14,512 nucleotides of DNA, taken from positions 1 to 14,512 of the forward strand of contig JAFGGO010000028.1 of assembly GCA_016930515.1 (NCBI GenBank), read 5' to 3'. Below, in pieces: positions 1 to 14,512 of the stretch (within the stretch, counting starts at the first letter, position 1; each line of letters begins with the position of its first letter). Origin of the DNA: Promethearchaeota archaeon. GTDB taxonomy: Archaea; Asgardarchaeota; Lokiarchaeia; Sigyniarchaeales; SOKP01. The notes under the pieces were generated by a model, which did no database searches, had not been told where the DNA came from, and worked only from the letters and a program-made list of their open reading frames with translations. The position numbers were made by a program, and so were the translations under genes.

Positions 1-1
1 A

Positions 2-73
2 ACAAAAAATGTCGCTGTTATTAAAAATGCTGAAAGACTCTTAGAAATAATTTTAATAGAAATTGGTGATTGA
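2..73 (+). CDS. 3' end of an upstream gene of the same operon (partial; ...TKNVAVIKNAERLLEIILIEIGD*)
   Basis: Frame is open from the window edge to TGA 71-73. Its last codons contain GGTGA, an archaeal SD-like motif positioned for the next gene. Confidence 0.6.
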   Translation, partial: TKNVAVIKNAERLLEIILIEIGD

Positions 74-1195
74 ATCTTTAAAGTAAGCGAGTTTGTCGAT
101 AAAAATATCCTAGATATTAAGAAAAAGTCTCATGGCGGGGAAATTCATAATTATCCTAATTATAATTTAATCGATTTTAGTTCAAACATCAATCATTTGA
201 TACCCAAAAATATCTATAAGGATACCTTGGACGAAATTTCTAATCAAATTGCAAAATATCCCGACTCGAATTCGAATCGATTGAAAAAGACATTATGCTC
301 GTATTTTAAAGGAAAATTAGAACCAGAAAATATGATAGTAACTAATGGTTCGATGGAATTAATCTCTTTATTCGCGGATACCTTTATTCAAAAAAATAAC
401 AAGGTAGTGATTTACCAACCAAGTTTTTCTGAATATTATTGGGCCGTAAATAAAAGGAATGGGCGCGTGATCAATATATTTAGAGATCCATTAAAAGAAT
501 TTCAATTAAATCTGAATGAACTTGAAAAATCGCTTTCCTATAATCCACAATGCGTTTTTATTTCTAATCCAAACAATCCCAATGGATCTTTAGACGATAT
601 AAACATTATTGAGAAGTTTATATCGTTGGCTGAAGAAGAAAATATTTTAATATTCCTCGATGAGGCCTTTATCGATTTTACAGGAGAAACAAATTCCATT
701 ATCACAAAAGCGCGTAAATATAACAATTTATTAGTTGCGCGCTCGTTTACAAAGTTTTTTGGAATACCTGGTTTGAGAATTGGTTACGGTGGAGCTAATA
801 GTGAAATTATTGAATTATTGAAGAAATTTCAAATACCTTGGTCAGTCAATTGTTTTGCTCAGAACTTGGCAGAAAAATTGATAAAATCAAACGATTTTAT
901 TAATAAGAGCATTAATTTTTTTCAAAACGAGCGAGAATATGTTGTGAAAAAACTTAGTAATATAAAAAATCTCAAATTATATTCGTCTGATACGAATTTT
1001 CTCCTTATAAATACAGAAAAAACACATTTAGACTCTCAATTTCTTTTGAATGAATTAATAAAACACGATATATTAATAAGAAATTGTTCTAATTACGAGG
1101 GACTCGATAAATATTATATCAGAATTGCTATAAAGTCAAGAAATCATAACAATAAATTGATAAATATATTAGAGTCTCTAATCAAGCAATCCTAA
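74..1195 (+). CDS. cobD: L-threonine-O-3-phosphate decarboxylase (PLP class I/II aminotransferase fold, HisC/CobD family)
   Basis: Motifs NGSMELI, NPNNPNG, DEAF, RSFTKFFGIPGLRIGY (PLP lysine) and IRIA. The family N-terminal motif HGG...DFSSNIN is encoded in frame upstream of the ORF-track TTG at 197, so the true start is near 74. Cob operon context favours CobD over HisC. Confidence 0.85.
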   Translation: MFKVSEFVDKNILDIKKKSHGGEIHNYPNYNLIDFSSNINHLIPKNIYKDTLDEISNQIAKYPDSNSNRLKKTLCSYFKGKLEPENMIVTNGSMELISLFADTFIQKNNKVVIYQPSFSEYYWAVNKRNGRVINIFRDPLKEFQLNLNELEKSLSYNPQCVFISNPNNPNGSLDDINIIEKFISLAEEENILIFLDEAFIDFTGETNSIITKARKYNNLLVARSFTKFFGIPGLRIGYGGANSEIIELLKKFQIPWSVNCFAQNLAEKLIKSNDFINKSINFFQNEREYVVKKLSNIKNLKLYSSDTNFLLINTEKTHLDSQFLLNELIKHDILIRNCSNYEGLDKYYIRIAIKSRNHNNKLINILESLIKQS

Positions 1196-1216
1196 TTAAA
1201 ATAAGAGATATAAAAA

Positions 1217-1561
1217 ATGCATGAAAAAGGTAGGATGTTAATCAAAAAAGCAATGAAAGTGGGAAAACTATCTGGTCTTGATAGCGATTGCAATTACTTG
1301 CCATGCCACGATGCAATACAGGATTGTACCTTTTGTTATTGTCCGTTTTACCCGTGTAACGACCCAGATGTGGGTGGGCGCGAAATAATTAGCTCGCGTA
1401 CCGGTCAGTCCGTTTGGTCTTGTTCGCAATGTACATTTAACCACGAAGCTAAAAATGCTGAAAAAATTCTTGATGGATTGATAAAACTCAACGAAGATTT
1501 TAACTTGATTAGCAGGAAAGAATTATTATCCCTGAAAAAAAGAATAATTGAAGGATGGTGA
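1217..1561 (+). CDS. Cysteine-rich small domain protein (zf-like, cobalamin-operon associated metal-binding domain)
   Basis: Pattern CNYLPCH...DCTFCYCPFYPC...VWSCSQC...H matches the Cys-rich small domain family. Its stop overlaps the cbiP start. Confidence 0.85.
   Translation: MHEKGRMLIKKAMKVGKLSGLDSDCNYLPCHDAIQDCTFCYCPFYPCNDPDVGGREIISSRTGQSVWSCSQCTFNHEAKNAEKILDGLIKLNEDFNLISRKELLSLKKRIIEGW
1276..1443 (+). repeat. Inverted repeat arm 1 (partner 6589-6755)
   Basis: Hand alignment: 168 vs 167 nt, about 10 differences including one indel; 1375-1430 is a 56-nt perfect match. Confidence 0.9.
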
Positions 1562-3075
1562 TTAATCTGGAAAAGTGTAAAACTATAATGATACAAGGAA
1601 CGGCTTCGCACGCCGGTAAGTCTTTAATGGCTACGGCCTTATGTAGGATTTTTAGTGACATGGGTTATAAGGTTGCGCCATTTAAGTCTCAAAACATGTC
1701 TTTAAATTCTTGTGTGAACGAAAGTGGAGATGAAATTGCACGATCTCAAATAGTTCAAGCCATGGCGGCAAGAGTAAAACCTATCGCAGAACACAATCCC
1801 ATATTATTAAAACCTAAAAGCGATAATTCATCGCAGATAATTTTAATGGGAAAATTATATGCCGATTATACCGTAAAAGAATATTATAAAACATATATCC
1901 CTCAATTAATCCCCCATATCCACGAGTCGTTAGAGAAATTGAAGAGAAATAACGATATAATAGTAATTGAGGGCGCTGGAAGCCCCGCAGAAATTAATAT
2001 TATGGATGGAGAGATCGCTAATATGTATGTAGCAAAATACTTGAAAGCTCCAGTTTTATTATGTTCTGATATAGATAGGGGAGGTGTATTCGCTTCAATT
2101 TATGGAACGATAAAACTACTCAAGCAAGAGGAACAAGATTTGATTAAGTTTTTCGTTATTAATAAATTTCGAGGCAATTTAGATCTTTTAACAGATGGTA
2201 TTAAGCAAATAGAGCGATTAGTGGGCAAAAAATGCTTGGGAGTCGTGCCCTTCATTCAAGATTTAAGAATTCCTGCCGAAGATTCAGTATCTTTAGAGGA
2301 TAAGCGATCACAGGGCATTATAAAAATAAAAGTCATTCAACTTCCAAGAATTTCGAACTTTAATGATTTTGAAGCCTTAGAATGGGAACCAGAAGTGCAT
2401 CTATCCTACACTTCCAATCCGGATGATTTGAAGGATTGTGACCTTATTATAATACCAGGTACGAAAAATACCATAAATGACTTATCATGGATGAAGCAAA
2501 AGGGATTTTTTTCAAAATTACGAGATTTAAAGGAATCAGGAAAAATTATTGTTGGCATTTGTGGAGGATATCAAATTTTAGGAGAAAAAATTATTGATAA
2601 TGCTATAGAAGGAGATCTTGATAAAGAATTTTCTGGACTGGGATTTCTTCCAATTAAAACGGAGTTTAAAGCTTATAAAAAGACAACAAGACAAGTAATT
2701 TCACGAATGATTGGTTTTCCTCAATTTAATGGATTATTAATTGAAGGCTACGAAATTCATATGGGAGAAATAACCTACTTGAGCAACGCACATCCTTTAT
2801 TACAGATCGAGGGAGAACTTAACGCAAACAAGGAGTTTGATGGGGCTATAAACGAAACTCATAATGTGTTTGGGAGTTTTATACACGATTTCTGGAATAA
2901 CAATGAATTTAGGAAGAAATTTATCCAATTTTTAGCCTCTAGAAATAATTATAAAAATGTTAAGGTGGAAAGCAAGAGTTATCAAGAGATTGTTGAGTTC
3001 AATATTGAAAAGCTAGCTAATAGCGTTAGAAATAATATAGATATGAAAGCCCTTCTTACAGAACTAGGAATATAG
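1555..3075 (+). CDS. cobQ: Cobyric acid synthase (adenosylcobyric acid synthase, glutamine-hydrolysing)
   Basis: QGTASHAGKS P-loop, VAPFKSQNMSLNS, NPILLKP, EGAGSPAEIN, DIDRGGVFA, INKFRG, PRISNF, PGTKNT, GICGGYQ (GATase Cys), GYEIHMG. Also called CbiP. Confidence 0.97.
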   Translation: MVINLEKCKTIMIQGTASHAGKSLMATALCRIFSDMGYKVAPFKSQNMSLNSCVNESGDEIARSQIVQAMAARVKPIAEHNPILLKPKSDNSSQIILMGKLYADYTVKEYYKTYIPQLIPHIHESLEKLKRNNDIIVIEGAGSPAEINIMDGEIANMYVAKYLKAPVLLCSDIDRGGVFASIYGTIKLLKQEEQDLIKFFVINKFRGNLDLLTDGIKQIERLVGKKCLGVVPFIQDLRIPAEDSVSLEDKRSQGIIKIKVIQLPRISNFNDFEALEWEPEVHLSYTSNPDDLKDCDLIIIPGTKNTINDLSWMKQKGFFSKLRDLKESGKIIVGICGGYQILGEKIIDNAIEGDLDKEFSGLGFLPIKTEFKAYKKTTRQVISRMIGFPQFNGLLIEGYEIHMGEITYLSNAHPLLQIEGELNANKEFDGAINETHNVFGSFIHDFWNNNEFRKKFIQFLASRNNYKNVKVESKSYQEIVEFNIEKLANSVRNNIDMKALLTELGI

Positions 3076-3084
3076 GTGGATAAA

Positions 3085-4161
3085 ATGAACACCACATTGT
3101 TTTGGAATAATTTTTGGATCATAACAGTTTTAACTCTGCTTTTTAGTTTTATAATAGATGTAATAATGGGAGATCCTAAGACCAAATATCACCCCGTAAT
3201 GATAATAGGAAAAACAATATCTCGTTTAAAATCTAAGTTGAGAACAGGAAAAGCAAGGCTCGATAAGTTTTTAGGAGTCCTAATGCTAATTTTAATAATT
3301 TTAATATTTTGTTCGCCGATTTTATTATTGCAAGGAATAATATGTGAAACTACGAGCTTGATAATCCAAATTAATGAGATATTATCAATAATTACCATCA
3401 TATTATTTTCTTTTTTTTCAGGATTTTTGCTCAAATGGACATTCGGCCTTAAATCGTTAGGTCAGGCAACTATACCAATTGGTGATACCTTATTAAAAGG
3501 AGACTTGGAAGAGGCAAGAAGCCGTCTTTCCTATATAGTAAGAAGAGATGCGCGCCAATTATCTGTAAAACACATTATTTCAGCCACAGTAGAGTGTATT
3601 GCTGAAAGCAGCACTGATGGTTCCACTAGCGTAATATGGTTTTATTTAATGGGAAATGCGGTGGGCGCCATTGTTTTTATTTTTATCAATCAAAATATTT
3701 TCTGGTTATTCCTCGGAATTCCCTCTGCTTATGCTTATAGAGTAATCAATACTGCCGATAGCGTTGTGGGCTATAAAGACGAAGAGAATATAAACATTGG
3801 GTATTTCTCAGCGAGGATGGACGATATTTCTAATTACATTCCAACTCGTCTTACGGTATTATGCATGCTTGTAGTCGGAAAGGTCATGAGGAAGGATATT
3901 AAGAACGCTTGGAGCGTGCTCAGGGCCGATCGTAAAAGCATGGAAAGTCCAAACGCAGGTTGGACCATAGGCGCAATGGCTGGATTATTAGGCATACAAT
4001 TAGAAAAAATAGGTCATTATATACTTGGTAATCCCAAGCGAGAGCTCGAAGTGAAAGACATTAAAACCTCGTTTAAAATAGTCGTATTGAGCGTGTTATT
4101 ATTCAATGCTCTTGTTTTTATAATGGTGTTTATCGTGATATTTTTAGTGAGAACGATATAA
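3085..4161 (+). CDS. cbiB: Adenosylcobinamide-phosphate synthase (CobD/CbiB family membrane protein)
   Basis: GDP...HPV, AR.RLSYIVRRD, ECIAE.S.DG, YRVINTADSVVGYK, ARMDDI.NYIPTRL, SPNAGW, A..LGIQLEK.G.Y.LG. ATG 3085 is preferred over GTG 3076 because AGGTGG lies 5 nt before it. Confidence 0.93.
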   Translation: MNTTLFWNNFWIITVLTLLFSFIIDVIMGDPKTKYHPVMIIGKTISRLKSKLRTGKARLDKFLGVLMLILIILIFCSPILLLQGIICETTSLIIQINEILSIITIILFSFFSGFLLKWTFGLKSLGQATIPIGDTLLKGDLEEARSRLSYIVRRDARQLSVKHIISATVECIAESSTDGSTSVIWFYLMGNAVGAIVFIFINQNIFWLFLGIPSAYAYRVINTADSVVGYKDEENINIGYFSARMDDISNYIPTRLTVLCMLVVGKVMRKDIKNAWSVLRADRKSMESPNAGWTIGAMAGLLGIQLEKIGHYILGNPKRELEVKDIKTSFKIVVLSVLLFNALVFIMVFIVIFLVRTI

Positions 4162-4179
4162 GGGAGGTATATTGAATAT

Positions 4180-4872
4180 TTGACAATAAACAAGTTTGAA
4201 AGCAAAATCAGAGATTTAACGATATCAATGGACAAGAAAAACATCGTATTTAATTCAAAAAGAGAGATGCAATGCATTAGTAACGCCGCTGTAAACGGAG
4301 GACGAATAAAGGCTCACTCAATTGTAAATCACCATGTCAAATTAGATTTCAACTTCACGAGCCTCGAAAACATTTTCGAACCCATTCAAAAAAAATACAA
4401 TTTAATTGAACCTACAATTGGTTTGTTAACAGCAGTTAAAATGGAAGAAGCAGTCTTAATTAACGAAAAAATCGACAATATTAATTTTACTGTTGTATTA
4501 ACGGCCGGACTTTCGAACTCAATAGCCCCTTTTGATTGCGAAGGTGTAAATAACGATTATAAGCACGAGAAAAACTATAAACCAGGAACAATAAATATCA
4601 TAATTCTTTTTGATTGCAAGTTAACAGAATACGCATTGGTAAACTTAATTATCACTCTCACGGAAGCAAAGACTTTATTGTTAAGTAAATATAACATCCG
4701 AACTTCTAACAATAACCAAGCCACGGGCACTTCCACCGACACGATTACGATTGGATATCTTGGAAATATTCCTTTAGTCAAATGGACGGGATATTCTACG
4801 AAATTTGGCCAATACGTGGGAAAAACCGTGTATAGTTGTCTTGAAAAAGCCATTAGAAAGTGGAGAGATTAA
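4180..4872 (+). CDS. cbiZ: Adenosylcobinamide amidohydrolase
   Basis: SNA.VNGG, GLLTAV, TAGLSN, GTINII, TEAK and ATGTSTD motifs. TTG start with GGAGGT at 4163-4168. Confidence 0.92.
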   Translation: MTINKFESKIRDLTISMDKKNIVFNSKREMQCISNAAVNGGRIKAHSIVNHHVKLDFNFTSLENIFEPIQKKYNLIEPTIGLLTAVKMEEAVLINEKIDNINFTVVLTAGLSNSIAPFDCEGVNNDYKHEKNYKPGTINIIILFDCKLTEYALVNLIITLTEAKTLLLSKYNIRTSNNNQATGTSTDTITIGYLGNIPLVKWTGYSTKFGQYVGKTVYSCLEKAIRKWRD

Positions 4873-4873
4873 C

Positions 4874-5722
4874 ATGGCTGTTTTTAAAGGTCTAAAAAAT
4901 TGCATTGCTTTTTTAACAAGAATTCCAATAAAAAAGGAAGTTGATATAATTCAAAATATCGCTACAAAAACATGGTTGTTTCCAGCAGTTGGATTTCTGA
5001 TCGGTCTTATTTCGAGCTTAATTGGCACGATATTATTTAATTTGCTTCCAAACCTCATCGTGGGATTTATGCTATTAGGTTCCATATTATTTGTATCGGG
5101 TGCTCATCATCTAGATGGCTTGATAGATTTTGGAGATGGGTTAATGGCTATGGGTCCTCAAGATCACAAAATTAAGGTAATGCACGATGTTTCAATTGGA
5201 GCTGGTGGGTTTTCGCTTGGATTAATTGTAATGATCTTAACAGGATTGAGTTTAGGATGTTTGAAAGATCTCCTAATTATTGCATTCATTTTAAGTGAAG
5301 TCGTTGCAAAATTGAACATTGTTGCTGCTTGTTCGATTGGAAAATCTGCGGGTACACCTATGGCAGAGCCGTTTATCGCTCAAACCAACAAGAAGCACTT
5401 GATAGTCTCTGCGTTGCTTTCCATTTTTTTGATTACATTTTCAGTAATGCTTCAGAATTTTAATTCTCTTTCATATAAAAAATTTCCCGGACTGAGCATA
5501 TTGATTACCCAAACAAATTTTCTTGATATAACATTCTTCAATATTTTCATTTTAATAATTATTCTAGCAATTTCTTCAATAATTCCCCTCTTAATAACGA
5601 TTAAACTTGCAAACAAGCATTTTAACGGGCTTACGGGAGATTGTTTAGGGGCATTAAACGAAATCACTAGAATGTTTTCGTTAATCGTTTTTATATCATT
5701 TATGGAAGCAGGCTTGATTTAA
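4874..5722 (+). CDS. cobS: Adenosylcobinamide-GDP ribazoletransferase (cobalamin 5'-phosphate synthase)
   Basis: FLTRIP, FPAVG, GAHHLDGLIDFGDGL, MHD..IGAGG, GLTGDCLGA.NE. The start is the ATG at 4874, just after the cbiZ stop, not the TTG at 4805. Confidence 0.95.
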   Translation: MAVFKGLKNCIAFLTRIPIKKEVDIIQNIATKTWLFPAVGFLIGLISSLIGTILFNLLPNLIVGFMLLGSILFVSGAHHLDGLIDFGDGLMAMGPQDHKIKVMHDVSIGAGGFSLGLIVMILTGLSLGCLKDLLIIAFILSEVVAKLNIVAACSIGKSAGTPMAEPFIAQTNKKHLIVSALLSIFLITFSVMLQNFNSLSYKKFPGLSILITQTNFLDITFFNIFILIIILAISSIIPLLITIKLANKHFNGLTGDCLGALNEITRMFSLIVFISFMEAGLI

Positions 5723-5737
5723 AAAAGAGGAAAATTA

Positions 5738-6382
5738 ATGAAAGTTACAGCAATTATAATGGCTGGAGGAAAAGGAAGTCGTTTTGATTACAAGAAAGCT
5801 CAATTTCCACACCAAGAAAAATTATTGCTCAAGCTTGGATCGAGGGTGATCATTGAAAGAGTTGCCGATGCCCTCAAGAAAGTAAGAAAAATTAATAAAA
5901 TTATATTTGCAGTATCTCCAAACTCACCTAAAACAAAGCAACTCATTTACAAGAAATATTCTAAAAATAAAATCATAGATACAAGTGGTATTGGATATCA
6001 CGAAGACCTCCAAGAAGTCTTTAGAAAAGAAAATTTAGCAACTACTTTAATTATTAATGGAGATATTCCATTAATTAAGCCTGAAATAATTGACGAAATT
6101 ATTGAGATTTATGTAAAGCTGAATAAACCCGCTCTTTCCGTAATGGCAAAAGCTAACTGTTTTGCCTTACATAATTTAACACCTACATCGTTATTAAAAT
6201 CCGAGCAAAATAAATGTTCATTAGTCCCTCTGGGAATAAATATGATAAACGGTAATTATATTAAGGATCAAGAGATCGAACAAGCAATATACATTACCAA
6301 TAGAATAGAATTATTTTACAACATAAACACTTTCGACGATTATATGGAATTATTAAGCTTTTTCGACGATCAAAAGAATTAA
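5738..6382 (+). CDS. cobY: GTP:adenosylcobinamide-phosphate guanylyltransferase (NTP transferase family)
   Basis: AIIMAGGKGSRF, EK.LL, AVSPNSPKT, T.G.GYHEDL, GDIPLI, G.N, NINT..D. Directly follows cobS. Confidence 0.9.
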   Translation: MKVTAIIMAGGKGSRFDYKKAQFPHQEKLLLKLGSRVIIERVADALKKVRKINKIIFAVSPNSPKTKQLIYKKYSKNKIIDTSGIGYHEDLQEVFRKENLATTLIINGDIPLIKPEIIDEIIEIYVKLNKPALSVMAKANCFALHNLTPTSLLKSEQNKCSLVPLGINMINGNYIKDQEIEQAIYITNRIELFYNINTFDDYMELLSFFDDQKN

Positions 6383-6437
6383 GATACTAAGGGTGATTAT
6401 TATAAGCTACTTCCCATATGGACGAAATGATGTTTTC

Positions 6438-6816
6438 TTAATGAAGAATATCTGATATTTCTTTTTCTTTACAAAGTACTCTTACAATTTTTTCTCTTAG
6501 ATTTAATAATTGTTTTCGGGTAATTGAATCAAAATCCTCGTTCAATTCCAATAAACCTTTCAAAATTTTTCGAGCGTTCCCCGTCTTATGGTTAAATCTA
6601 TATTGCGAACAAGACCAAACGGACTGACCGGTACGCGAGCTAATTATTTCGCGCCCAACCACATCTGGCTCGTTGCACGGGTAAAACGGATAGAAACAAA
6701 GGTACAATCCTGTATTGCACCGTGGCATGGCAAGTAATTGCAATCGCTATCAAGATCCGTGATTTTTTTTTTGCTTTAATTGCTTTTTTAATGAGCATTC
6801 TATCTTTCTCGTGCAT
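6438..6816 (-). pseudogene. Frameshifted paralogue of the Cys-rich small domain gene at 1217-1561
   Basis: Begins MHEKDRMLIKKA at 6816 (MHEKGRMLIKKA in the intact copy). An A10 run where A8 would keep frame, a 1-nt deletion in a T run, and two Cys-to-Tyr changes (CYC to CFY, CSQC to CSQY). Confidence 0.85.
6589..6755 (-). repeat. Inverted repeat arm 2 (partner 1276-1443)
   Basis: Reverse complement of 1276-1443 at about 94% identity. Confidence 0.9.
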
Positions 6817-6933
6817 TACAAATCACATGAATTTAGACTGTAAATATATAATAAACATAGTTCTCCATTCAATTTAAGCGGATTAAATAAATAATAATCG
6901 CAAAGATATGTACTCAATTGATCGTCTAAAGAA

Positions 6934-7344
6934 TTACAATTCCTTCCAAACGATAAAATCGTTATCGTTTAACGCATAATCGTCAGATGCAACGGGAGGT
7001 TGAGAACCGTTTACGGAAAATACCCACCCGTTTCCATATACTCCGTTTATTGCTTCAACATATATTACCGTATTGATTGACCCTTTATAGATAACATCAC
7101 ACCAAAGGTCTAAAGCGTGAAAAACTGTGGTTTCATGATTCTTCAAGGAAAAATCAAACCAGTTTAAATCTTCGTTTGTTTTAAAGTCAATTCTCAAGCT
7201 AATACCGTTGACTTCTTCTTTTAAACCAGGATTTTGGGTCGCTGAAGGGTTGTTTGTAACTAAATAATTTACGATAATAAGCGTTGAAAAAGAGACAATT
7301 GCTAGTATTATTATTATCAGATATTTCAAGCTTTTTTTATTCAT
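6934..7344 (-). CDS. Membrane-anchored DUF4430 / transcobalamin-like C-terminal domain protein (putative corrinoid binding)
   Basis: N-terminal TM helix, then TVFHAL, YVEAINGV, W.F.VNG...PVASDDY.L.D.D.I.W, the beta-grasp pattern of DUF4430. Confidence 0.8.
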   Translation of the reverse strand: MNKKSLKYLIIIILAIVSFSTLIIVNYLVTNNPSATQNPGLKEEVNGISLRIDFKTNEDLNWFDFSLKNHETTVFHALDLWCDVIYKGSINTVIYVEAINGVYGNGWVFSVNGSQPPVASDDYALNDNDFIVWKEL

Positions 7345-7361
7345 TTTACATCAATCTCAAT

Positions 7362-7377
7362 AAAAAAAAAGAAAAAA
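7362..7377 (-). terminator. Oligo-T tract, archaeal-type terminator candidate after the 448-aa gene
   Basis: TTTTTTCTTTTTTTTT on the minus strand about 10 nt after the stop codon. Confidence 0.45.
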
Positions 7378-7386
7378 TTAGTATTA

Positions 7387-8733
7387 TTATTTGTTCAATT
7401 TCTTTTGATACCTCATCACGAATACAATGGAGAGTGCTCCGATAATTCCAATAACAGCAAGTATTGGAAATGAGGGCACGGAATCTAATATGTTTTCGGG
7501 ATGATACACATCCAAGATGGACATTTCCAAGCTATAATCTCCAACAACAGTTTGGACCCATTGAAGTAGTCCAGTGTATTTATCGTAGATTAAAGAAGTT
7601 GATTGGAATCCACTCGATTGTTCAAAGCTGATATGTATCGTCAAGTTCGTATATTGGATAGAAACTGTTCCAGCGAAATAACCTTCGTTCTGATCTTGCG
7701 CTTGCTGAGCAACCTGCGTGAGATTGTTCACATCGAGGAAAAAACCAGAAGTGAAATTGTAATATCCTATAGCGAGAGCGTAGGCAGCTTCCGAATTAGA
7801 AACATTGTTAAAGGTCATTATCTCGAAACTATTAGTTATATTTTCCACGAATGTAATGTTAATAAAAGGGACTGCCCCTTCAAATGGAGAAGGATCGAGC
7901 GTTTCTTTATCGAAAAAATCGTTAACATTCACTATCACAAGGCCACCTGGATTTGTGGAATAGTTTCCTCTCGATCCTACCATCCAATCGTAGCCCCACC
8001 ATTCGGATTCTCCTCCGAAATCGTGAACATTGTAGATAAAAGGATCGCTATAATCAAAAGTATAATTCGTGAGAAACATGTCAAGCTGATAATTCCCAGC
8101 ACTCGTCCAAGCCCTTACCAACAAGCCTGTCTTCTTGTCGTAGATCAATTGGGTCGATTGAGGGAGGAATCCAGAGGTCTTAAAATGGAAGTATATTAAA
8201 GAATATGTTTCTTCGACTGAGAGAATAACATCCTCTCCCTCTGCGGCTATTTCTGCCATTTCAATCAAGCCTTCATAATCGTTGTTAGGTACAAGGAATC
8301 CTGAAATAAAACCGTTCCAATACCCTAGTGTCATTTGACTCTGTGCTTCACTGTTCGAACAATTTAATCTCGTCAAGTTTGCGGTCGTTTCTCCCGCTTT
8401 ATACACCCTCACATCCATCCAAGACATGTTAGAGCTGGGAAAGATATCCCCCCAATCGTTCGGGTCCTTGCCGTAAAATCCAGTAAAATTAACCTTAATT
8501 TGTCCGCCCTTATTTGTGGACCAATTTGAAATCGGAGTCGAGAAAGCCCACCACTCAGCAACGCCTCCAAAAGCCGTCACGTTATAAACATACTCTTGTC
8601 CGATTGCAATATCTTGCGAATACTCTGGAGGGATTGTTGAAGCGGCTTTCGCAAAAGGAATCGATCCAAACGCTACGATGGCAAGCAATATCGAACTGAG
8701 AAACAATCCAGTTAGTTTTGTTTTGTTTTTCAT
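7387..8733 (-). CDS. Secreted, C-terminally anchored surface glycoprotein with two ~175-aa repeated domains
   Basis: Signal peptide ending AKA|A; repeats at aa 48-221 and 232-407; about 14 N-x-S/T sequons; C-terminal VPSF + hydrophobic helix + basic tail, resembling PGF/PEF-type archaeal sorting signals. Confidence 0.85.
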   Translation of the reverse strand: MKNKTKLTGLFLSSILLAIVAFGSIPFAKAASTIPPEYSQDIAIGQEYVYNVTAFGGVAEWWAFSTPISNWSTNKGGQIKVNFTGFYGKDPNDWGDIFPSSNMSWMDVRVYKAGETTANLTRLNCSNSEAQSQMTLGYWNGFISGFLVPNNDYEGLIEMAEIAAEGEDVILSVEETYSLIYFHFKTSGFLPQSTQLIYDKKTGLLVRAWTSAGNYQLDMFLTNYTFDYSDPFIYNVHDFGGESEWWGYDWMVGSRGNYSTNPGGLVIVNVNDFFDKETLDPSPFEGAVPFINITFVENITNSFEIMTFNNVSNSEAAYALAIGYYNFTSGFFLDVNNLTQVAQQAQDQNEGYFAGTVSIQYTNLTIHISFEQSSGFQSTSLIYDKYTGLLQWVQTVVGDYSLEMSILDVYHPENILDSVPSFPILAVIGIIGALSIVFVMRYQKKLNK

Positions 8734-8787
8734 CTTTTTTCGTGTTTATGTGATTTATAATTTATTATTACATGAGAGAAAAACGAA

Positions 8788-9414
8788 CTAATCTATCATT
8801 TTTGAACATAGTTGAATTAACGCGGGAAGAATGTAAATAAAGCCAAGCGTGTTTCCCACGATGTGAATGATCGTAAATATAATACCCGACATGAAATAAA
8901 GTAAAAAAGATTCGGTAGTCGTAAACACGAACAAATATCCAACTAATGAAGCAAAAATTTGATATATTAATGTTAAGCTAAAGCCCATACAACCGAAGAC
9001 TGCAACAATTTTCCATTTGAACATGTCGTGTTTTTGAACAAAATAAGGCTTTTTTGTTAGATAGTACTTAGCAAATCCACCCATCAAACCAACTAACGAA
9101 TAATGGATCATTTGATAGGTCAAGAGAGGAATACTTGACATTCCCATTGGATTAAATCCACAAAATAGGAACGAACTCAACGCTCCAATAATTAATCCTT
9201 CTTTTTTACCGATAACAAATCCCGATAAAAAAATGACAAGCGTGAATAATTCTATATTAGGTATTGTTGCCAAGAGATATCCAAAAACGACTGCTAAAGA
9301 GGTGAATATTGCCGTGAGCGCAATTCTAAACGAAATACTGTTGAGTCTAGAAGAATGAAATTCCTTTAATTGATCTTCTTCTTCTTCAACTTTTAATGTA
9401 TCTGTTTGTTCCAT
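8788..9414 (-). CDS. ECF transporter S component, CbrT-like (putative cobalamin/cobinamide specificity)
   Basis: About 6 TM helices, an AxxxS/A motif in helix 1 (TAIFTSLA), IPNIE loop, Q...Y and HIVGN motifs resembling CbrT. Neighbours are DUF4430 and cob genes. Confidence 0.8.
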   Translation of the reverse strand: MEQTDTLKVEEEEDQLKEFHSSRLNSISFRIALTAIFTSLAVVFGYLLATIPNIELFTLVIFLSGFVIGKKEGLIIGALSSFLFCGFNPMGMSSIPLLTYQMIHYSLVGLMGGFAKYYLTKKPYFVQKHDMFKWKIVAVFGCMGFSLTLIYQIFASLVGYLFVFTTTESFLLYFMSGIIFTIIHIVGNTLGFIYILPALIQLCSKMID

Positions 9415-9458
9415 TTTTCTTCGTTTGAATGAATAATTGTATTAATGTAATAATTTAT

Positions 9459-9491
9459 CCTATAAAAGGTTATAGGTTAATCTGTCCTACG
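9459..9491 (-). promoter_or_regulatory. Promoter/operator copy 1: TATA (TTTTATA on -) plus DtxR/IdeR-like palindrome ATAGGTTAATCTGTCCTAC (9472-9490)
   Basis: About 45 nt upstream of the ECF S start; 28/33 identical to 9788-9820; 13/19 match to the consensus TTAGGTTAGSCTAACCTAA. Confidence 0.65.
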
Positions 9492-9556
9492 ACTGTCACG
9501 CTTTAAGAGCTTGAATCGTTTAAACATTAATTATGGCGATTTTTAGTCGAGAAATA

Positions 9557-9676
9557 TTAAAAAGAGCATGAATAAACGAGAGGGCTTGCTGGAGGGTCCA
9601 TTGGAAGGATCAAGGTAGTAAGTAACGAGACTTAACCTCCAGCAAGCGTTCTCTCCCTTTATTAAGGGCTTTTTAA
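9557..9676. ncRNA. Long interrupted stem-loop, candidate structured ncRNA or regulatory leader
   Basis: Nested complementary arms: TTAAAAAG/CTTTTTAA, AATAAA/TTTATT, GAGAG/CTCTC and a perfect 12-bp GCTTGCTGGAGG/CCTCCAGCAAGC (9584-9595/9636-9647) around a 40-nt loop. No ORF. Confidence 0.5.
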
Positions 9677-9787
9677 CAATAGGAAAACATTAAGCGTGAT
9701 GTGAACAATCTAAAGAATGATCATAACGGTTTCTTTCTTGAATCAATGCAATTTGTTTTTTTCTATTTAATGAGTAAAAACAATATT

Positions 9788-9820
9788 CCTATATAAACTT
9801 ATAGGTTAAACTATCCTACG
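9788..9820 (-). promoter_or_regulatory. Promoter/operator copy 2: TATA (TTTATATA on -) plus DtxR/IdeR-like palindrome ATAGGTTAAACTATCCTAC (9801-9819)
   Basis: Direct repeat of 9459-9491 at 329 bp spacing; 14/19 match to the DtxR consensus. Confidence 0.62.
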
Positions 9821-10159
9821 GAAATATTCTTAAATTCAAAAAAATTCCTTTTTTTTCATAAATAACAAACCTTACTTGTTCGACAAAATTGGAGTCAAAC
9901 GTTTTAATGTCCATTTTCCTCTTTGTTACATATTCGTGAAAAAATTTCCGCTTTTTTTGTCCGAATTTAGAGCGAAATGATATGGAAAAATCCCAAAATT
10001 CGTCATAAAACTTGCTTGATTAAATTAATTTAATGACCTGGCTCGTTTTATCTTTTTTTTTCCGGTGAGTGTTGTTTGTCGATTATGTTTTTTTTAAAAA
10101 AAACAAGTCCATAAATCGAAAGCCAATGGTTTTTTACACATGCGAGATTATATCCATTT

Positions 10160-11032
10160 ATGGTAGACGCAAGTATAATTGCCAAGGAAATACAAGAAAA
10201 ATACCACATCATCGGTCGAACCGAAGAGCTCAAGAAAATCGTGCTGGCTCATTCAGTGGGAAAAAACATCCTGATCGAGGGAGAAGTAGGAGTTGGAAAA
10301 ACCACGCTCGCCAAGGCCATATCGTCGTATTTCGACGCCGAGTTTTATCGCATAGATTGTAGTGAAGAAAGTCTCGCTCACAATCTCATCGGGTATTTTG
10401 ACCCGCCCTTAGTCATTGCGAAAGGTTACGTGGAAGATTCTTACGTGTATGGTCCGCTTCCGTCTGCCATGCTCAAGGGAGGTTGCTTGTTCATTAACGA
10501 GATTAACCGAATGCCCGAAAGCACTCAAAATTCTTTACTCACCGCGTTAGACGAGAAAACGCTCGAAATCCCTAAACTCAAGGCGATCAAGGCCAAGCAG
10601 GGATTTTTTGTGATTGCGACCCAAAACCCTGGAGCACATATTGGAGTTACTGTATTGGGAGAAGCTCTAAAGGATAGATTCGTGTGGATCAAGCTCGATT
10701 ATCAACCAGCTCCTGAAGAGATAGAAATCATCAAGCAAGACAATACCTTTAGCGAGGACGCAGCTCATTCCATTGCTGAAATTTCACAACGCATCGTGCA
10801 ACGAACGCGTAATAGCACAACCTTGCGGAGAGGAAGTTCCATACGTGGGGCGATCGATCTTGCTGCACTAATGAACCATAATGGAGAAGCAAAAAGTTCC
10901 AAAGCATGGGTTGACGCTGCCGTCATGGCACTGCACAACAAGATCGAACTTGAAGACGGAGTGAATAAGACAAAATCAGAAGTGATTAGCGACATCGTTC
11001 ATTCCGTGCTTAATAAAGCAGATTTTCAGTAA
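10160..11032 (+). CDS. MoxR-family AAA+ ATPase
   Basis: Walker A GEVGVGKT, Walker B variant LFINEINR, QNSLL.ALDE, VIATQNP, sensor/Arg finger EALKDRF, lid GSSIRGAID. Confidence 0.93.
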   Translation: MVDASIIAKEIQEKYHIIGRTEELKKIVLAHSVGKNILIEGEVGVGKTTLAKAISSYFDAEFYRIDCSEESLAHNLIGYFDPPLVIAKGYVEDSYVYGPLPSAMLKGGCLFINEINRMPESTQNSLLTALDEKTLEIPKLKAIKAKQGFFVIATQNPGAHIGVTVLGEALKDRFVWIKLDYQPAPEEIEIIKQDNTFSEDAAHSIAEISQRIVQRTRNSTTLRRGSSIRGAIDLAALMNHNGEAKSSKAWVDAAVMALHNKIELEDGVNKTKSEVISDIVHSVLNKADFQ

Positions 11033-11069
11033 TCGATGACTTCTCTTCGGAAGAAATCGAAGAGATCGA
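11020..11069 (+). other. Candidate -1 programmed ribosomal frameshift signal (A_GAT_TTT, 6-nt spacer, bulged stem-loop)
   Basis: The vWA frame (-1) is open from 11017 and overlaps the MoxR end. Stem TCGAT/ATCGA (11033-37/11065-69) plus CTCTTCG/CGAAGAG (11043-49/11058-64). Confidence 0.5.
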
Positions 11070-11085
11070 GAACAGACGGCTGCAC

Positions 11086-12144
11086 GTGAGGCTTACTGAG
11101 CGCCCACCTGATAAGGAAATCCTTCGATATGAGATAGTCAGAAAGAAGAAAAAGAAACCTGATTATTATCGACACTTGGCAAATACCATGGACTATAAGG
11201 AAATCAAGGAACTCACCTATATGGCAATTCAAGCCAAGAACTTGGAAGCCATCATGGGCATGCTCAAGTCCAATGTGTACGCCGCAACGGACGCTCTGGA
11301 TTGCGACGAGGGCGTCAAGTTCTTTTCCGAAAAAGCAGAAGAATCGAGCGCGTTTGTCCCTGAAGTCTATTTTTTCGTGCGCCGTCCCATATCTGAAAAA
11401 TACAAATACGTGTTTCGAAGGCTGGCCAGACAAAGCATCATCAAGATGTCGCTCAAGATCACGAGCAAGGGCATCCAGGGTCACTACAAGAAGACCGTAC
11501 CTACTTACCAAATTGGCATGCCCGAGTTTGATTTGGACGAGACCATCCAACACAACCCGCTCAAGATACTTGATAGGACCTTGAGTTATCGGGATGTGTA
11601 CGGCATCAAGCGCCAAAGGCAAAAACGAAGGATTGTCATGATCCTCGATACGAGTGGCTCTATGTACGGCAGGCTCTTGTTAAACGCCGCTCTCACGACA
11701 TCAGTACTAGCGTATAACATGGAAAAGGAGAATTATGGCATCGTGCTATTCAACTCCACGGCGATGTTATTAAAAAAAATCGACGAGAGAAAGTCAATTA
11801 AGGACATCATTGACGAAATATTGGATTCAGAGGCAGTTGGTTTCACGAATATCTATATTGGCCTTGAGAAAGGCTTGAAAGAGCTTCACAAGATCAAGGA
11901 CAGTTCAAAAAAACAATTTGGCATCCTAATATCTGACGGAAACTACAACAGGGGAGAAAATCCCTTGAAGCTGGCAAGCCAATTTCCAAAATTACATGTC
12001 ATTGGCATTCCCGCCGATAATGACGCCGATCGTGGCCAACAGACTTGTCGTGAGATCGCACGAGCGGGTAAGGGAAAATTTTATGCCGTCGAGGATTATA
12101 AGGAAATTCCTCGTGCTTTAATAAACCTGCTATCCCAAAATTAA
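11086..12144 (+). CDS. von Willebrand factor A domain protein (CoxE/ChlD-like partner of the MoxR ATPase)
   Basis: MIDAS DTSGSM...GFTNI...ISDG; pre-vWA segment EFDLDETI. The start is uncertain because the frame is open from 11017. Confidence 0.92.
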   Translation: MRLTERPPDKEILRYEIVRKKKKKPDYYRHLANTMDYKEIKELTYMAIQAKNLEAIMGMLKSNVYAATDALDCDEGVKFFSEKAEESSAFVPEVYFFVRRPISEKYKYVFRRLARQSIIKMSLKITSKGIQGHYKKTVPTYQIGMPEFDLDETIQHNPLKILDRTLSYRDVYGIKRQRQKRRIVMILDTSGSMYGRLLLNAALTTSVLAYNMEKENYGIVLFNSTAMLLKKIDERKSIKDIIDEILDSEAVGFTNIYIGLEKGLKELHKIKDSSKKQFGILISDGNYNRGENPLKLASQFPKLHVIGIPADNDADRGQQTCREIARAGKGKFYAVEDYKEIPRALINLLSQN

Positions 12145-12491
12145 TGAATTTTTAACAATTCAATTATAATATATTTTATACTCATTTTTTGATAAAAATA
12201 GAAATTTGGAAGTAGAACAATTTATATTCCTTAACCATATTATTACTTTATTTAATAACAGGTTCTTTGTTATGGCATTTTTAAAAAAAAATACAAAAAA
12301 AATCGCAAAATCGGGTAATTTTATAGAAGAATGATCAATTATAAAATTACTCCTTTTTTTCTTATCTTATTATTTATATCGTATTGATTTTTGTAGTTAA
12401 TAATTAATTTAAAAACCAATACTCACCTACTCTTTTTAACGATTTGTTGTCAAGGTTATATGTAGAATGTAGACAATTAGGTGTTAAATGC

Positions 12492-13823
12492 GTGGTCCGA
12501 CCCCCGACTGAAAAGAACATTTGCCTTCGTTGTAAGGGTGCTCGACAGCTCTGTGGCAAGTCCTCTTGCCCCATCTTGTTCAAGCAATCAGTTCTTAAAT
12601 CGATGCTTCCGTTCAAGTTTGGAAAGGTCGAACGAAATGTCGAGTTGTTTGGGGCAAGCCCTCCTGGATTTTTCGTAGGACGGTTTGGATACCCTAATGT
12701 GAACATTGGTCCATTAGTTCCTCTTTCGGAACTTGGTTCAAAGCTAGATATCACCGATTTTCACATCTTGGACGCTCCCGAGATATGGTTTGGTAAGCCA
12801 ATGGTTGACATTGTTCAATACCGTAGTAGTCTTGTCCGTAGCAATTTTAGTATTAATGTACGCATTGATAAGGAAAAAAGCAAGAACACGCTTCCGATTA
12901 AGACATCCAAGTTACTCGACGCATCTAGGGAGCTATCGATGGCAGCACGACCCGTTGATACCGAAACGAAGCTGGAAAAAATGCGCATGGGTCTCACGAT
13001 GGATAATCACGCCCTGCCCGTAGGACCTACGGGTAAAACCGAACAGATACGAATCGACGAAAATGTGAAAGTACACCCCAAAGTAGACTATTGCGTTTCG
13101 GACGGCGATTTGAAAGCGAGCGAGGCGATTTCGGAACACCTCTATTTCAAGGGCCATGTGCCACAATCTACCATCGAGCGAGTTTTTTCAGCGGGACTTC
13201 TCGGAGAGGAAAAGAACCGGAAGATCGTTCCAACGAGATGGACCATAACAGCCATTGACGATATTGTTTCAAAGCGCTTGATTCAAGAGATCAAGAAGTT
13301 CCCCGAGATTAACGATTATCGAATGTTCGAAAGCACCTACCTTGATAACCATTTCAAGATTCTTCTCTTTCCCGGCAAGTTCGCCTTCGACATGAACGAG
13401 GTATGGGCGCCAAACTCGCTATGGAATGTCTCGCTCTCCGGAAATAATAAAGCCCTCACGCCTCAAATTATGAACGACTACGAGTTTTACAGCGGGAGAA
13501 AAAAATACGCAAGTAACATAACGGGTGCTTACTACGCTGCAAGAAAATCGGTTTGCGAGTATTTATATGACATTAGAAAACAAGCAAGAGTGCTCATTTT
13601 TCGAGAAGTGTCAGGAGGGTATATCGTACCGTTAGGTGTATGGGTCATTCGCGAAACCGTAAAAAACGCTCTTGAAAAAGCACCACCACGAGTACTAGAC
13701 AATTTTGAAAACTCCCTCAAAGAAATGGGCAATGGCTTAATGGTGGACCTCAAATCGTGGCAAAAAAAGAGCACGCTTATAAACTTTATAAAAAATCAGA
13801 GAACTTTAGACGATTTTACATGA
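12492..13823 (+). CDS. nreA: Nre-family archaeal DNA repair protein (PCNA interacting)
   Basis: N-terminal CLRCKG..LCG...CP, SPP..FVGR.GYP.V..GPL, VPTRW.ITA.D, GAYYAAR, GY.VPLGVW.IRE, C-terminal PIP motif QRTLDDF. GTG 12492, with AGGTG upstream, is preferred over TTG 12444. Confidence 0.93.
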   Translation: MVRPPTEKNICLRCKGARQLCGKSSCPILFKQSVLKSMLPFKFGKVERNVELFGASPPGFFVGRFGYPNVNIGPLVPLSELGSKLDITDFHILDAPEIWFGKPMVDIVQYRSSLVRSNFSINVRIDKEKSKNTLPIKTSKLLDASRELSMAARPVDTETKLEKMRMGLTMDNHALPVGPTGKTEQIRIDENVKVHPKVDYCVSDGDLKASEAISEHLYFKGHVPQSTIERVFSAGLLGEEKNRKIVPTRWTITAIDDIVSKRLIQEIKKFPEINDYRMFESTYLDNHFKILLFPGKFAFDMNEVWAPNSLWNVSLSGNNKALTPQIMNDYEFYSGRKKYASNITGAYYAARKSVCEYLYDIRKQARVLIFREVSGGYIVPLGVWVIRETVKNALEKAPPRVLDNFENSLKEMGNGLMVDLKSWQKKSTLINFIKNQRTLDDFT

Positions 13824-13930
13824 TCTTTAGTGTTTTAGCTTGATAAAACTTCAAATTGTATGAAGAATAAAGATTTCGGGAAAACTATTAATTTAAATAA
13901 TTAAATTAGAAAATTAAGGAAAAAATAGAA

Positions 13931-14080
13931 TTATTCGGCATCTTTAAAACCGTAGCTGAATTTCCAGGGGTGATGCGCGTAATCCATTAAGACTCTCATC
14001 ATGTCTTTGTCCCCTTCTTTAGTTTCCCATAGGTCCCATGGAATCACTTTCACGTGTTCAACTAATCCAACTTTGCTCAT
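13931..14080 (-). CDS. Unknown 49-aa small protein, copy 1 (MSKVGLVEHVKVIPWDLWETKEGDKDMMRVLMDYAHHPWKFSYGFKDAE)
   Basis: Missing from the ORF track (too short). SD-like GGAAGTGA precedes the ATG; differences from copy 2 are nearly all synonymous. Confidence 0.85.
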   Translation of the reverse strand: MSKVGLVEHVKVIPWDLWETKEGDKDMMRVLMDYAHHPWKFSYGFKDAE

Positions 14081-14148
14081 TTTTTTCACTTCCTTTGTTT
14101 TTTATTTTACTTTTTGTTTTAGGTCCAACTTTGTAATAATATCAAGAG

Positions 14149-14173
14149 TACTTAAAAGATCGCTATAAATATT
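14149..14173 (-). promoter_or_regulatory. Putative promoter of small-protein copy 1
   Basis: AATATTTATAGCGATCTTTTAAGTA, identical over 25 nt to 14396-14420; contains TATA-like TTTATA and TTTTAAG. Confidence 0.55.
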
Positions 14174-14189
14174 ATAAGGAAAAAAAAAA

Positions 14190-14339
14190 TTATTCAGCAT
14201 CTTTAAAACCGTAGCTGTACTTCCAGGGGTGATGGGCGTAATCCATTAAGACTCTCATCATGTCTTTGTCCCCTTCTTTAGTTTCCCATAGGTCCCACGG
14301 AATCACTTTCACGTGTTCAACCAATCCAACTTTGCTCAT
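14190..14339 (-). CDS. Unknown 49-aa small protein, copy 2 (Y instead of F at position 41)
   Basis: Same SD and ATG as copy 1. The upstream ATG at 14378 is not conserved in copy 1. Followed by a T10 tract on -. Confidence 0.85.
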   Translation of the reverse strand: MSKVGLVEHVKVIPWDLWETKEGDKDMMRVLMDYAHHPWKYSYGFKDAE

Positions 14340-14395
14340 TTTTTTCACTTCCTTTGTTTTTTGTTTTATTTCTAACATTATAATAATATAAAGAC

Positions 14396-14420
14396 TACTT
14401 AAAAGATCGCTATAAATATT
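14396..14420 (-). promoter_or_regulatory. Putative promoter of small-protein copy 2
   Basis: 25-nt exact match to 14149-14173. Confidence 0.55.
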
Positions 14421-14512
14421 TTAAGGGTGTTTAAACTTGTTTGAAAGAATTAAGCGAAAGCGTTTAAATTGCACATTTAAGGGGATAATGATTAAATATT
14501 GAATGAATTATT

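Follow-up and report, generated by a model that had tools for sequence, protein, structure and literature searches.

A probable programmed −1 ribosomal frameshift linking a MoxR-class ATPase to a vWA domain in Asgard archaea

In the Promethearchaeota contig JAFGGO010000028.1 (positions 1–14,512, hereafter the window, i.e., the whole 14,512-nucleotide stretch of DNA that was analysed), an open reading frame (ORF) for a MoxR-class AAA+ ATPase is followed in the −1 frame by an ORF that ends in a von Willebrand factor A (vWA) domain. The comparative evidence makes it very probable that these two ORFs are one recoded gene, read through by a programmed −1 ribosomal frameshift on the motif U_UUU, such that the locus would yield both the ATPase alone and an ATPase-vWA fusion. 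No report of such a frameshift emerged from literature searches covering MoxR, vWA, Asgard and archaea.

All elements of the gene lie on the forward strand. The AAA ORF, in the 0 frame, occupies positions 10160–11032, encodes the short product of 290 amino acids (aa) and ends in ...AAT AAA GCA GAT TTT CAG TAA. The vWA frame lies at −1 relative to it and is open for 375 codons, from 11017 to the TAA at 12142–12144; upstream, a −1-frame TAA at 11014–11016 sets the 5′ limit of the zone in which a shift can reach the vWA frame. The two frames overlap by 16 nucleotides (nt), and inside this overlap lies the proposed slip site, A_GAT_TTT (11020–11026), with the 0-frame stop TAA (11030–11032), which terminates the short product, one codon past it. 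A −1 slip on TTT would give ...ADF-SVIDDFSSEEIEEIENRRLH..., joining 289 residues to the −1-frame coding part of the long product (11026–12144; 372 codons from TCA 11026, then the stop), for a total of 661 aa, with ADFSVIDDFSSEEIEEIENR as the predicted trans-frame junction peptide, whose counterpart in most relatives is SDFSIIDDFS...; the predicted masses are ~33 kDa for the short and ~75 kDa for the long product. The earliest ATG, GTG or TTG in the −1 frame is GTG 11086, its 24th codon. No GGAGG-like motif stands upstream of this GTG, and the absence of a Shine–Dalgarno sequence is hardly informative in this organism because the AAA start also lacks one. An earlier note, made from the window's sequence alone, had described the ORF end, the −1 frame open from 11017, the heptamer, the lack of a start before GTG 11086 and the 289 + 372 aa, and had read them as a programmed −1 frameshift; every one of these descriptions is reproduced here, and the interpretation gains support from the comparisons that follow.

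The frame relation is conserved well beyond the window. Orthologous loci were taken from whole genomes and the frame relation was derived for each locus, over 19 Asgard families and down to an AAA identity of ~45%. The vWA frame was at −1 in 29 of 29 relatives (25 from the same family and four from a sister family), in 80 of 80 further Promethearchaeota loci, in 14 of 14 loci from other families of the order and class, and in 17 of 19 loci from other Asgard families, i.e., in 140 of the 144 split orthologous loci, although the relatives from metagenome-assembled genomes are kin and the first two locus sets overlap (86 distinct junction sequences in the window's family). With this layout shared by 140 of 144 split loci, the comparison places the AAA-vWA arrangement far beyond chance. 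Moreover, every −1 locus carries a U-run slip motif 0–2 codons ahead of the 0-frame stop. The earlier note had looked to orthologues for a conserved GAT TTT and a −1 overlap; this pairing, with GAT TTT or another U-run heptamer, is kept over the 19 families.

The slip motif itself varies in an informative manner. In the window's family, N_GAT_TTT is present in all 105 loci except one or two, which read A_AAT_TTT; the base before GAT is mostly G, with A in about a dozen loci including the window and T in a few. At the same position, other families carry heptamers of the canonical X_XXY_YYZ form, namely A_AAT_TTT, A_AAT_TTC, T_TTT_TTA, T_TTT_TTC, G_GGT_TTT, and C_CCT_TTT. Among the aligned loci of the window's family, the constant element is the Phe codon with its preceding U. 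In two loci (L019 and L020) a −1-frame TGA stands immediately ahead of TTT, and since it closes the −1 frame right there, a shift in these loci is only possible on U_UUU. Taken at face value, the alignments suggest that P-site re-pairing is dispensable in the window's family and that slippage of the Phe-tRNA looks like the essential event. This agrees with the earlier suggestion that, the P site being non-canonical, a single Phe-tRNA might slip, as only U_UUU is constant in the family. In plant RNA viruses, GGAUUUU is well established as a −1 site (PMC4737148, PMC5009743).

We envisage recoding at this locus to proceed as follows. Most ribosomes would read GAU UUU CAG, stop at UAA 11030 and release the 290-aa MoxR-class ATPase, while a fraction would slip back by one base with the Phe-tRNA on UUU 11024–11026, which would re-pair at UUU 11023–11025. 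The pairing of the P-site Asp-tRNA after such a slip would be poor and is apparently not required. The shifted ribosomes would then translate an acidic linker, next a helical domain and finally a vWA domain that bears a metal ion-dependent adhesion site (MIDAS), producing the 661-aa fusion, and the slip would probably be favoured by the nearby stop codon and by RNA structure ~6 nt downstream. The likely purpose would be the co-assembly of the short and long forms into AAA+ rings, part of whose subunits bear a covalently tethered vWA adaptor, following the logic of ChlI and ChlD made from frameshifted chlD. The shift might in that case set the hexamer-to-adaptor stoichiometry, as the earlier note had supposed.

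Natural in-frame fusions provide a further line of evidence. In a search of the −1 ORF against 1.8 billion representative proteins, many homologues of 560–711 aa matched it in their C-terminal half, and all 10 of the fusion homologues that were scanned combine an N-terminal AAA_5 domain with a C-terminal vWA domain. Uninterrupted AAA_5-vWA fusions of ~590–730 residues were found in one or two Asgard families, at L147, L151, and L152 (family f25), L149 (the one such genome of family f24), and L031, which encodes protein P0032. The contig of P0032 carries EAP30, Spt5, and S17e genes, an Asgard context. P0032 shares 51% identity with the AAA part of the window up to ...SNSDF and then continues as FRSKRQIKVRFSE, in which the segment KVRFSE aligns with RLHVRLTE of the window (ADF-SVIDD...RRLHVRLTE). 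At the DNA level its junction reads TCG GAT TTT TTT CGT, i.e., GAT TTT is kept and the T-run is longer. Such fusions, which the earlier note had proposed to look for and of which P0032 passes through the same ...SDF motif, argue that the fused AAA-vWA protein is a natural, selected form.

The principal alternative is that the locus encodes two separate proteins, with the vWA ORF translated alone and the −1 overlap being a mere compact gene junction. MoxR proteins and their vWA partners are mostly encoded by separate neighbouring genes, NorQ and NorD being an example. Public gene calls split the locus and let the vWA protein begin at various internal codons, with a loss of 25–90 residues (the called protein P0003 begins at residue 87 and P0004 near residue 26). 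Translation in this case would have to begin by reinitiation after the UAA, at a non-canonical codon such as AUC 11032 or GUA 11029, or else at a start further downstream (GTG 11086 or ATG 11188). A separate promoter or start for the vWA ORF was rejected, as neither ATG 11188 nor GTG 11086 is conserved among relatives. More generally, the first ATG, GTG or TTG of the −1 ORF is scattered among loci, as early as codon 10 in some and past codon 100 in others; L022, L023, and five loci of the further Promethearchaeota set have no start codon within 90–100 codons. The relatives thus show no conserved independent vWA start, which the earlier note had named as an outcome that would refute the frameshift. 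One locus, L114 of family f5, does have a TTG overlapping the stop that could serve a separate vWA protein.

The stretch ahead of the first start, by contrast with what two separate proteins would lead one to expect, is conserved as protein. The 23 codons ahead of GTG 11086 have a mean aa identity of 68% among 25 orthologues, with the variation mostly in third positions. Over the first 50 codons past the end of the AAA ORF, a stop interrupts the −1 frame in 0 of 25 loci, vs. 24 and 25 of 25 for the other two frames. Genome matches to the −1 ORF of the window start at residue 2–3 of the open frame. Judged by this coding signature, the stretch before the first start is translated. A slip-prone U-run heptamer with a fixed offset over 19 families would also be unexpected for compact gene junctions, and the in-frame fusions continue through the same motif. 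Taken together, we regard translation of the vWA ORF as a separate protein as improbable.

Silent-site variation singles out the junction as well. When the virtual fusions of 25 orthologues were aligned by codon (671 columns), the synonymous difference rate fell to 0.03 at the junction, in an interval centred 2–3 codons past the slip, vs. 0.51 overall, which is the lowest value of all 671 columns; a second trough, at 0.13, lies 11–16 codons further on. Because silent-site variation is minimal at the junction, selection there is, on this alignment, acting on more than the protein.

Could the shift take place in the transcript rather than on the ribosome? RNA polymerase might slip on the T-run, so that a share of the transcripts gain or lose one base and are read by normal ribosomes. 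Longer runs do occur elsewhere, with T6–T7 in families f4, f10, f19, and f27 and T8 in L146, and there are precedents, in that the efficiency of the frameshifted chlD genes (fs-chlD) rises with the length of the A-run and Thermus dnaX uses transcriptional slippage (PMC3711429). However, in the window, as throughout its family, the run is just four T's long, well short of the runs named for transcriptional realignment, which are those of A over 7 and of T over 8 (PMC3711429), and the conserved phase of the heptamer, the close stop and the conserved downstream RNA block better fit a ribosomal event. We hold transcriptional slippage to be very unlikely, and less likely than separate translation. 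That the locus is merely a broken gene or an assembly error, i.e., a former in-frame fusion with a one-base homopolymer indel, is hardly credible despite the origin of the window from a metagenome-assembled genome and the in-frame fusions in other lineages, since 140 loci, each assembled independently, share the offset, neither frame is interrupted, purifying selection acts on both halves, and the silent-site conservation at the junction is unusually strong.

Downstream of the slip site, RNAfold predicts a bulged hairpin at 11033–11069 as the minimum free energy (MFE) fold of the window, in agreement with the stem-loop that the earlier note had drawn 6 nt past the heptamer. It consists of an outer stem of 4 base pairs (bp; 11033–11036/11066–11069), a 5-nt bulge, and an inner stem of 8 bp (11042–11049/11058–11065) with an 8-nt loop (11050–11057), and its two arms line up with the two silent-site troughs. 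From 25 orthologous junctions, RNAalifold recovered no more than two invariant helices of 4 bp, which hardly covaried. When 72 nt around the stop were folded for 41 diverse loci, the mean z was −0.6 and seven loci fell below −1.5, so that the MFE did not single out the element.

The other families suggest a different geometry. There, a hairpin located 2–8 nt past the stop is framed by a 5′ GA and a 3′ (G/A)AU-GA with pairing flanks, and a strict scan for kink-turns (a canonical (C) stem, a 3-nt bulge, tandem sheared G.A/A.G pairs, and a non-canonical (NC) stem) identified 13 of 35 loci vs. 0.9 expected, with many near misses and with stem sequences that vary between families. For the window's family, pairing models were scored on the 86 distinct junctions: 82% of cells were paired under the bulged hairpin, 90% under a kink-turn with a loop-capped NC stem, and 92% under a kink-turn homologous to that of the other families. 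By this scoring the three models fit about equally and none appears clearly better; real covariation was confined to an apical GGA/UCC helix of 3 bp. Both GA dinucleotides are found at the homologous place, making up the full kink-turn signature, in 47 of the 86 junctions, and GA at the position homologous to 11047–11048 in 48 of 86. A kink-turn was rejected for the window itself, where the UC at 11047–11048, on the non-bulged strand, forms Watson–Crick pairs in place of the G.A pairs; because this UC pairs with the opposite GA, the window has a longer regular stem. For the Asgard group as a whole, the kink-turn reading appears plausible.

Not all of the conservation can be assigned to pairing. 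The block UAAUCGAUGAUUUCUC (11030–11045, and 86 relatives) is nearly invariant, including its silent sites, and it is kept even where the proposed 3′ pairing partner differs among relatives. Within the same region, AUCGAUGA, which follows the stop directly, shows next to no variation, and none of the three pairing models accounts for this.

Several observations weigh against a programmed −1 frameshift as we propose it. The heptamer of the window, A_GAU_UUU, is non-canonical, in that its A-site half (U_UUU) fits and its P-site half does not, and after the slip AGA would be the codon opposite the Asp-tRNA. In stability the hairpin does not exceed shuffled sequences (z = −0.4 for 91 nt and −1.2 for 72 nt), and its exact pairing is not conserved and covaries weakly; the compensatory stem changes that the earlier note had hoped for turned out to be few. 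The TTG in L114 mentioned above is a possible ordinary start. Kinship and overlap among the loci mean that the counts overstate their independence, even if the sequences are still well diverged. Finally, four of the split loci are at +1 (L137 and L148 in family f32, L146 in f23, and L150 in f24), with a site that consists of a run of six to eight T's, such as AAG TTT TTT CGG. In f32, two species share the +1 state, which is thus probably genuine rather than an artefact of assembly. Because of these four +1 loci, the recoding event is not uniform.

A more far-reaching possibility is that the slip is a regulated switch in most Asgard lineages, in which L7Ae or a paralogue would bind a kink-turn or kink-loop (K-loop) past the stop, its occupancy would set the ratio of ATPase to fusion, the window would represent a Watson–Crick variant of the element, and the fusion would be a prokaryotic relative of midasin. 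As a joint proposal this is speculative, and we consider it rather unlikely to hold in all its parts.

The AAA ORF belongs to the MoxR class on the basis of its matches to PF07728 (AAA_5; 78 bits, cut-off 22) and PF07726 (AAA_3; 68.8 bits, cut-off 27). Its Walker A motif is GEVGVGKT, and its Walker B motif, LFINE, has NE instead of DE, as do the fused homologues P0031 and P0032. Compared with solved structures, the module has its best match, by a wide margin, in the AAA modules of Midasin/Rea1 (E = 3e-38), with the bacterial NorQ (8e-12) next and then CbbQ. Membership in the ChlI type or in chlD was rejected, as PF01078 aligns with the P-loop only (residues 17–56) and the TIGR02442 scores, 17.7 and 23 bits, are far below the required 779.

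The −1 part of the long product begins with an acidic disordered linker, SVIDDFSSEEIEEIENRRLHVRLTERPP... (11026–11109), which is conserved in 29 orthologues. An AlphaFold model of the −1 part, built from these 29 orthologues, has an overall predicted local distance difference test (pLDDT) score of 71 and comprises a disordered acidic start (pLDDT < 50 for residues 1–20), a confident all-helical domain and a vWA domain whose MIDAS is intact. The helical domain (11110–11463; residues 29–146 of the −1 part) has eight helices with a pLDDT of 85–93 and is without a Pfam match. The vWA domain (11623–12141; PF00092, PF13519, and PF05762) makes up the C-terminal 170 residues of the −1 ORF; its MIDAS comprises DxSxS from 11647 (DTSGS) and, further on, the T of GFTN and the D of SDG, and the corresponding residues (D208, S210, S212, T274, and D304) are invariant across the 29 orthologues. 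Against solved structures, a single-sequence search with the vWA ORF gave no match, and a profile search yielded nothing beyond weak matches to CobT and archaeal vWA proteins without an assigned role. A fold search with the model returned generic vWA matches, including NorD in NorQD complexes and Rea1-MIDAS (6qt8), and no match for the helical domain. With its AAA - acidic linker - vWA architecture, the long product is predicted to act with the short one as a remodelling ATPase of the MoxR type, equipped with an adaptor that depends on metal. On the minus strand, an antisense ORF of 198 codons (11026–11622) lies opposite the linker and the helical region; it sits within conserved sense coding sequence and is probably spurious.

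The closest parallel among known systems is fs-chlD, in which one gene gives rise to AAA and AAA-vWA chelatase subunits by slipping on A-runs, with measured efficiencies of 10–63% (PMC3711429, PMC9227772). In both systems, termination yields the AAA+ subunit and a shift right after the AAA module yields AAA+-acidic linker-vWA; both have in-frame fusions in other lineages, −1 and +1 forms, and, for fs-chlD, representatives in archaea as well as bacteria. However, the AAA module here is of the AAA_5/AAA_3 (MoxR) class and not of the ChlI type, the site is a short U_UUU motif instead of a run of 7–11 A's, and the downstream element and the lineage differ, with a site conserved across Asgard archaea; the cobamide genes near the locus are salvage genes, not chelatase genes. 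Escherichia coli dnaX (tau/gamma; PMC3711429) is another cellular AAA+ gene with a −1 shift, in which long and short subunits share the ATPase and join one complex, and it too combines a slippery heptamer with a downstream hairpin, but there the shifted product is the short one, the site is A_AAA_AAG with an upstream Shine–Dalgarno-like stimulator, and the system is bacterial.

The same two domain families also cooperate in NorQ/NorD, CbbQ/CbbO, and RavA/ViaA, consistent with the match of the AAA module to NorQ and CbbQ and of the vWA model to NorD, although in these systems they are separate polypeptides encoded by separate genes, whereas at this locus some of the AAA subunits would carry the vWA part through a covalent link. 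Midasin/Rea1 resembles the fusion in that a single chain connects AAA_5 modules, by way of an acidic linker, to a MIDAS/vWA domain at the C-terminus, but it has six fused AAA modules and about 4,900 residues and involves no frameshift. The vWA match to Midasin/Rea1 is no better than that to other vWA domains, and the apparent kinship of the AAA module with midasin is best treated as a lead only. As to the slip site, most relatives of the window have the same heptamer (G_GAU_UUU) as umbraviruses and dianthoviruses, which likewise have structure downstream of it (PMC4737148, PMC5009743); these are, however, eukaryotic RNA viruses with long-range or pseudoknot elements, and the window itself has A_GAU_UUU.

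Few cellular genes are known to require −1 frameshifting, and the known archaeal cases amount to a handful. If the present reading is correct, a −1 frameshift has been kept over most of the Asgard phylum, and the locus would be a good natural system for slippage on archaeal ribosomes, the closest relatives of eukaryotic ones. It would also extend the chlD principle, by which one gene provides an AAA+ subunit and a vWA-bearing version of it, to a second, distinct AAA+ family, and its occurrence in two families would suggest the mixing of tethered and untethered ring subunits as a general design. The unusually strong likeness of the AAA module to midasin modules offers a lead on where the eukaryotic ribosome-assembly machine came from. 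Annotation would be affected too, as current gene calls divide the locus and shorten the vWA protein.

The surroundings of the locus are archaeal: Nre_N/Nre_C follow it downstream, and an energy-coupling factor (ECF) S component and a cluster for cobamide salvage precede it. The cobamide salvage and late-synthesis cluster (197–9414) comprises an aminotransferase, CobQ-like, CobD/CbiB, CbiZ, CobS, and a MobA-like nucleoside triphosphate (NTP) transferase, and facing it are the ECF S component, a 448-aa unknown protein and a DUF4430 protein. Between the divergent genes, the ~745 nt at 9415–10159 contain no confined ORF of 60 aa and no Rfam match, and an Rfam scan of the whole window returned no family at threshold. 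The G+C content is 43–44% over the AAA-vWA locus (10001–12000), 29–36% in the first 7 kb, and 32–41% in the nearer flanks. Two Cys-rich, zinc finger-like paralogues are located at 1217–1561 on the plus strand and 6438–6743 on the minus strand.

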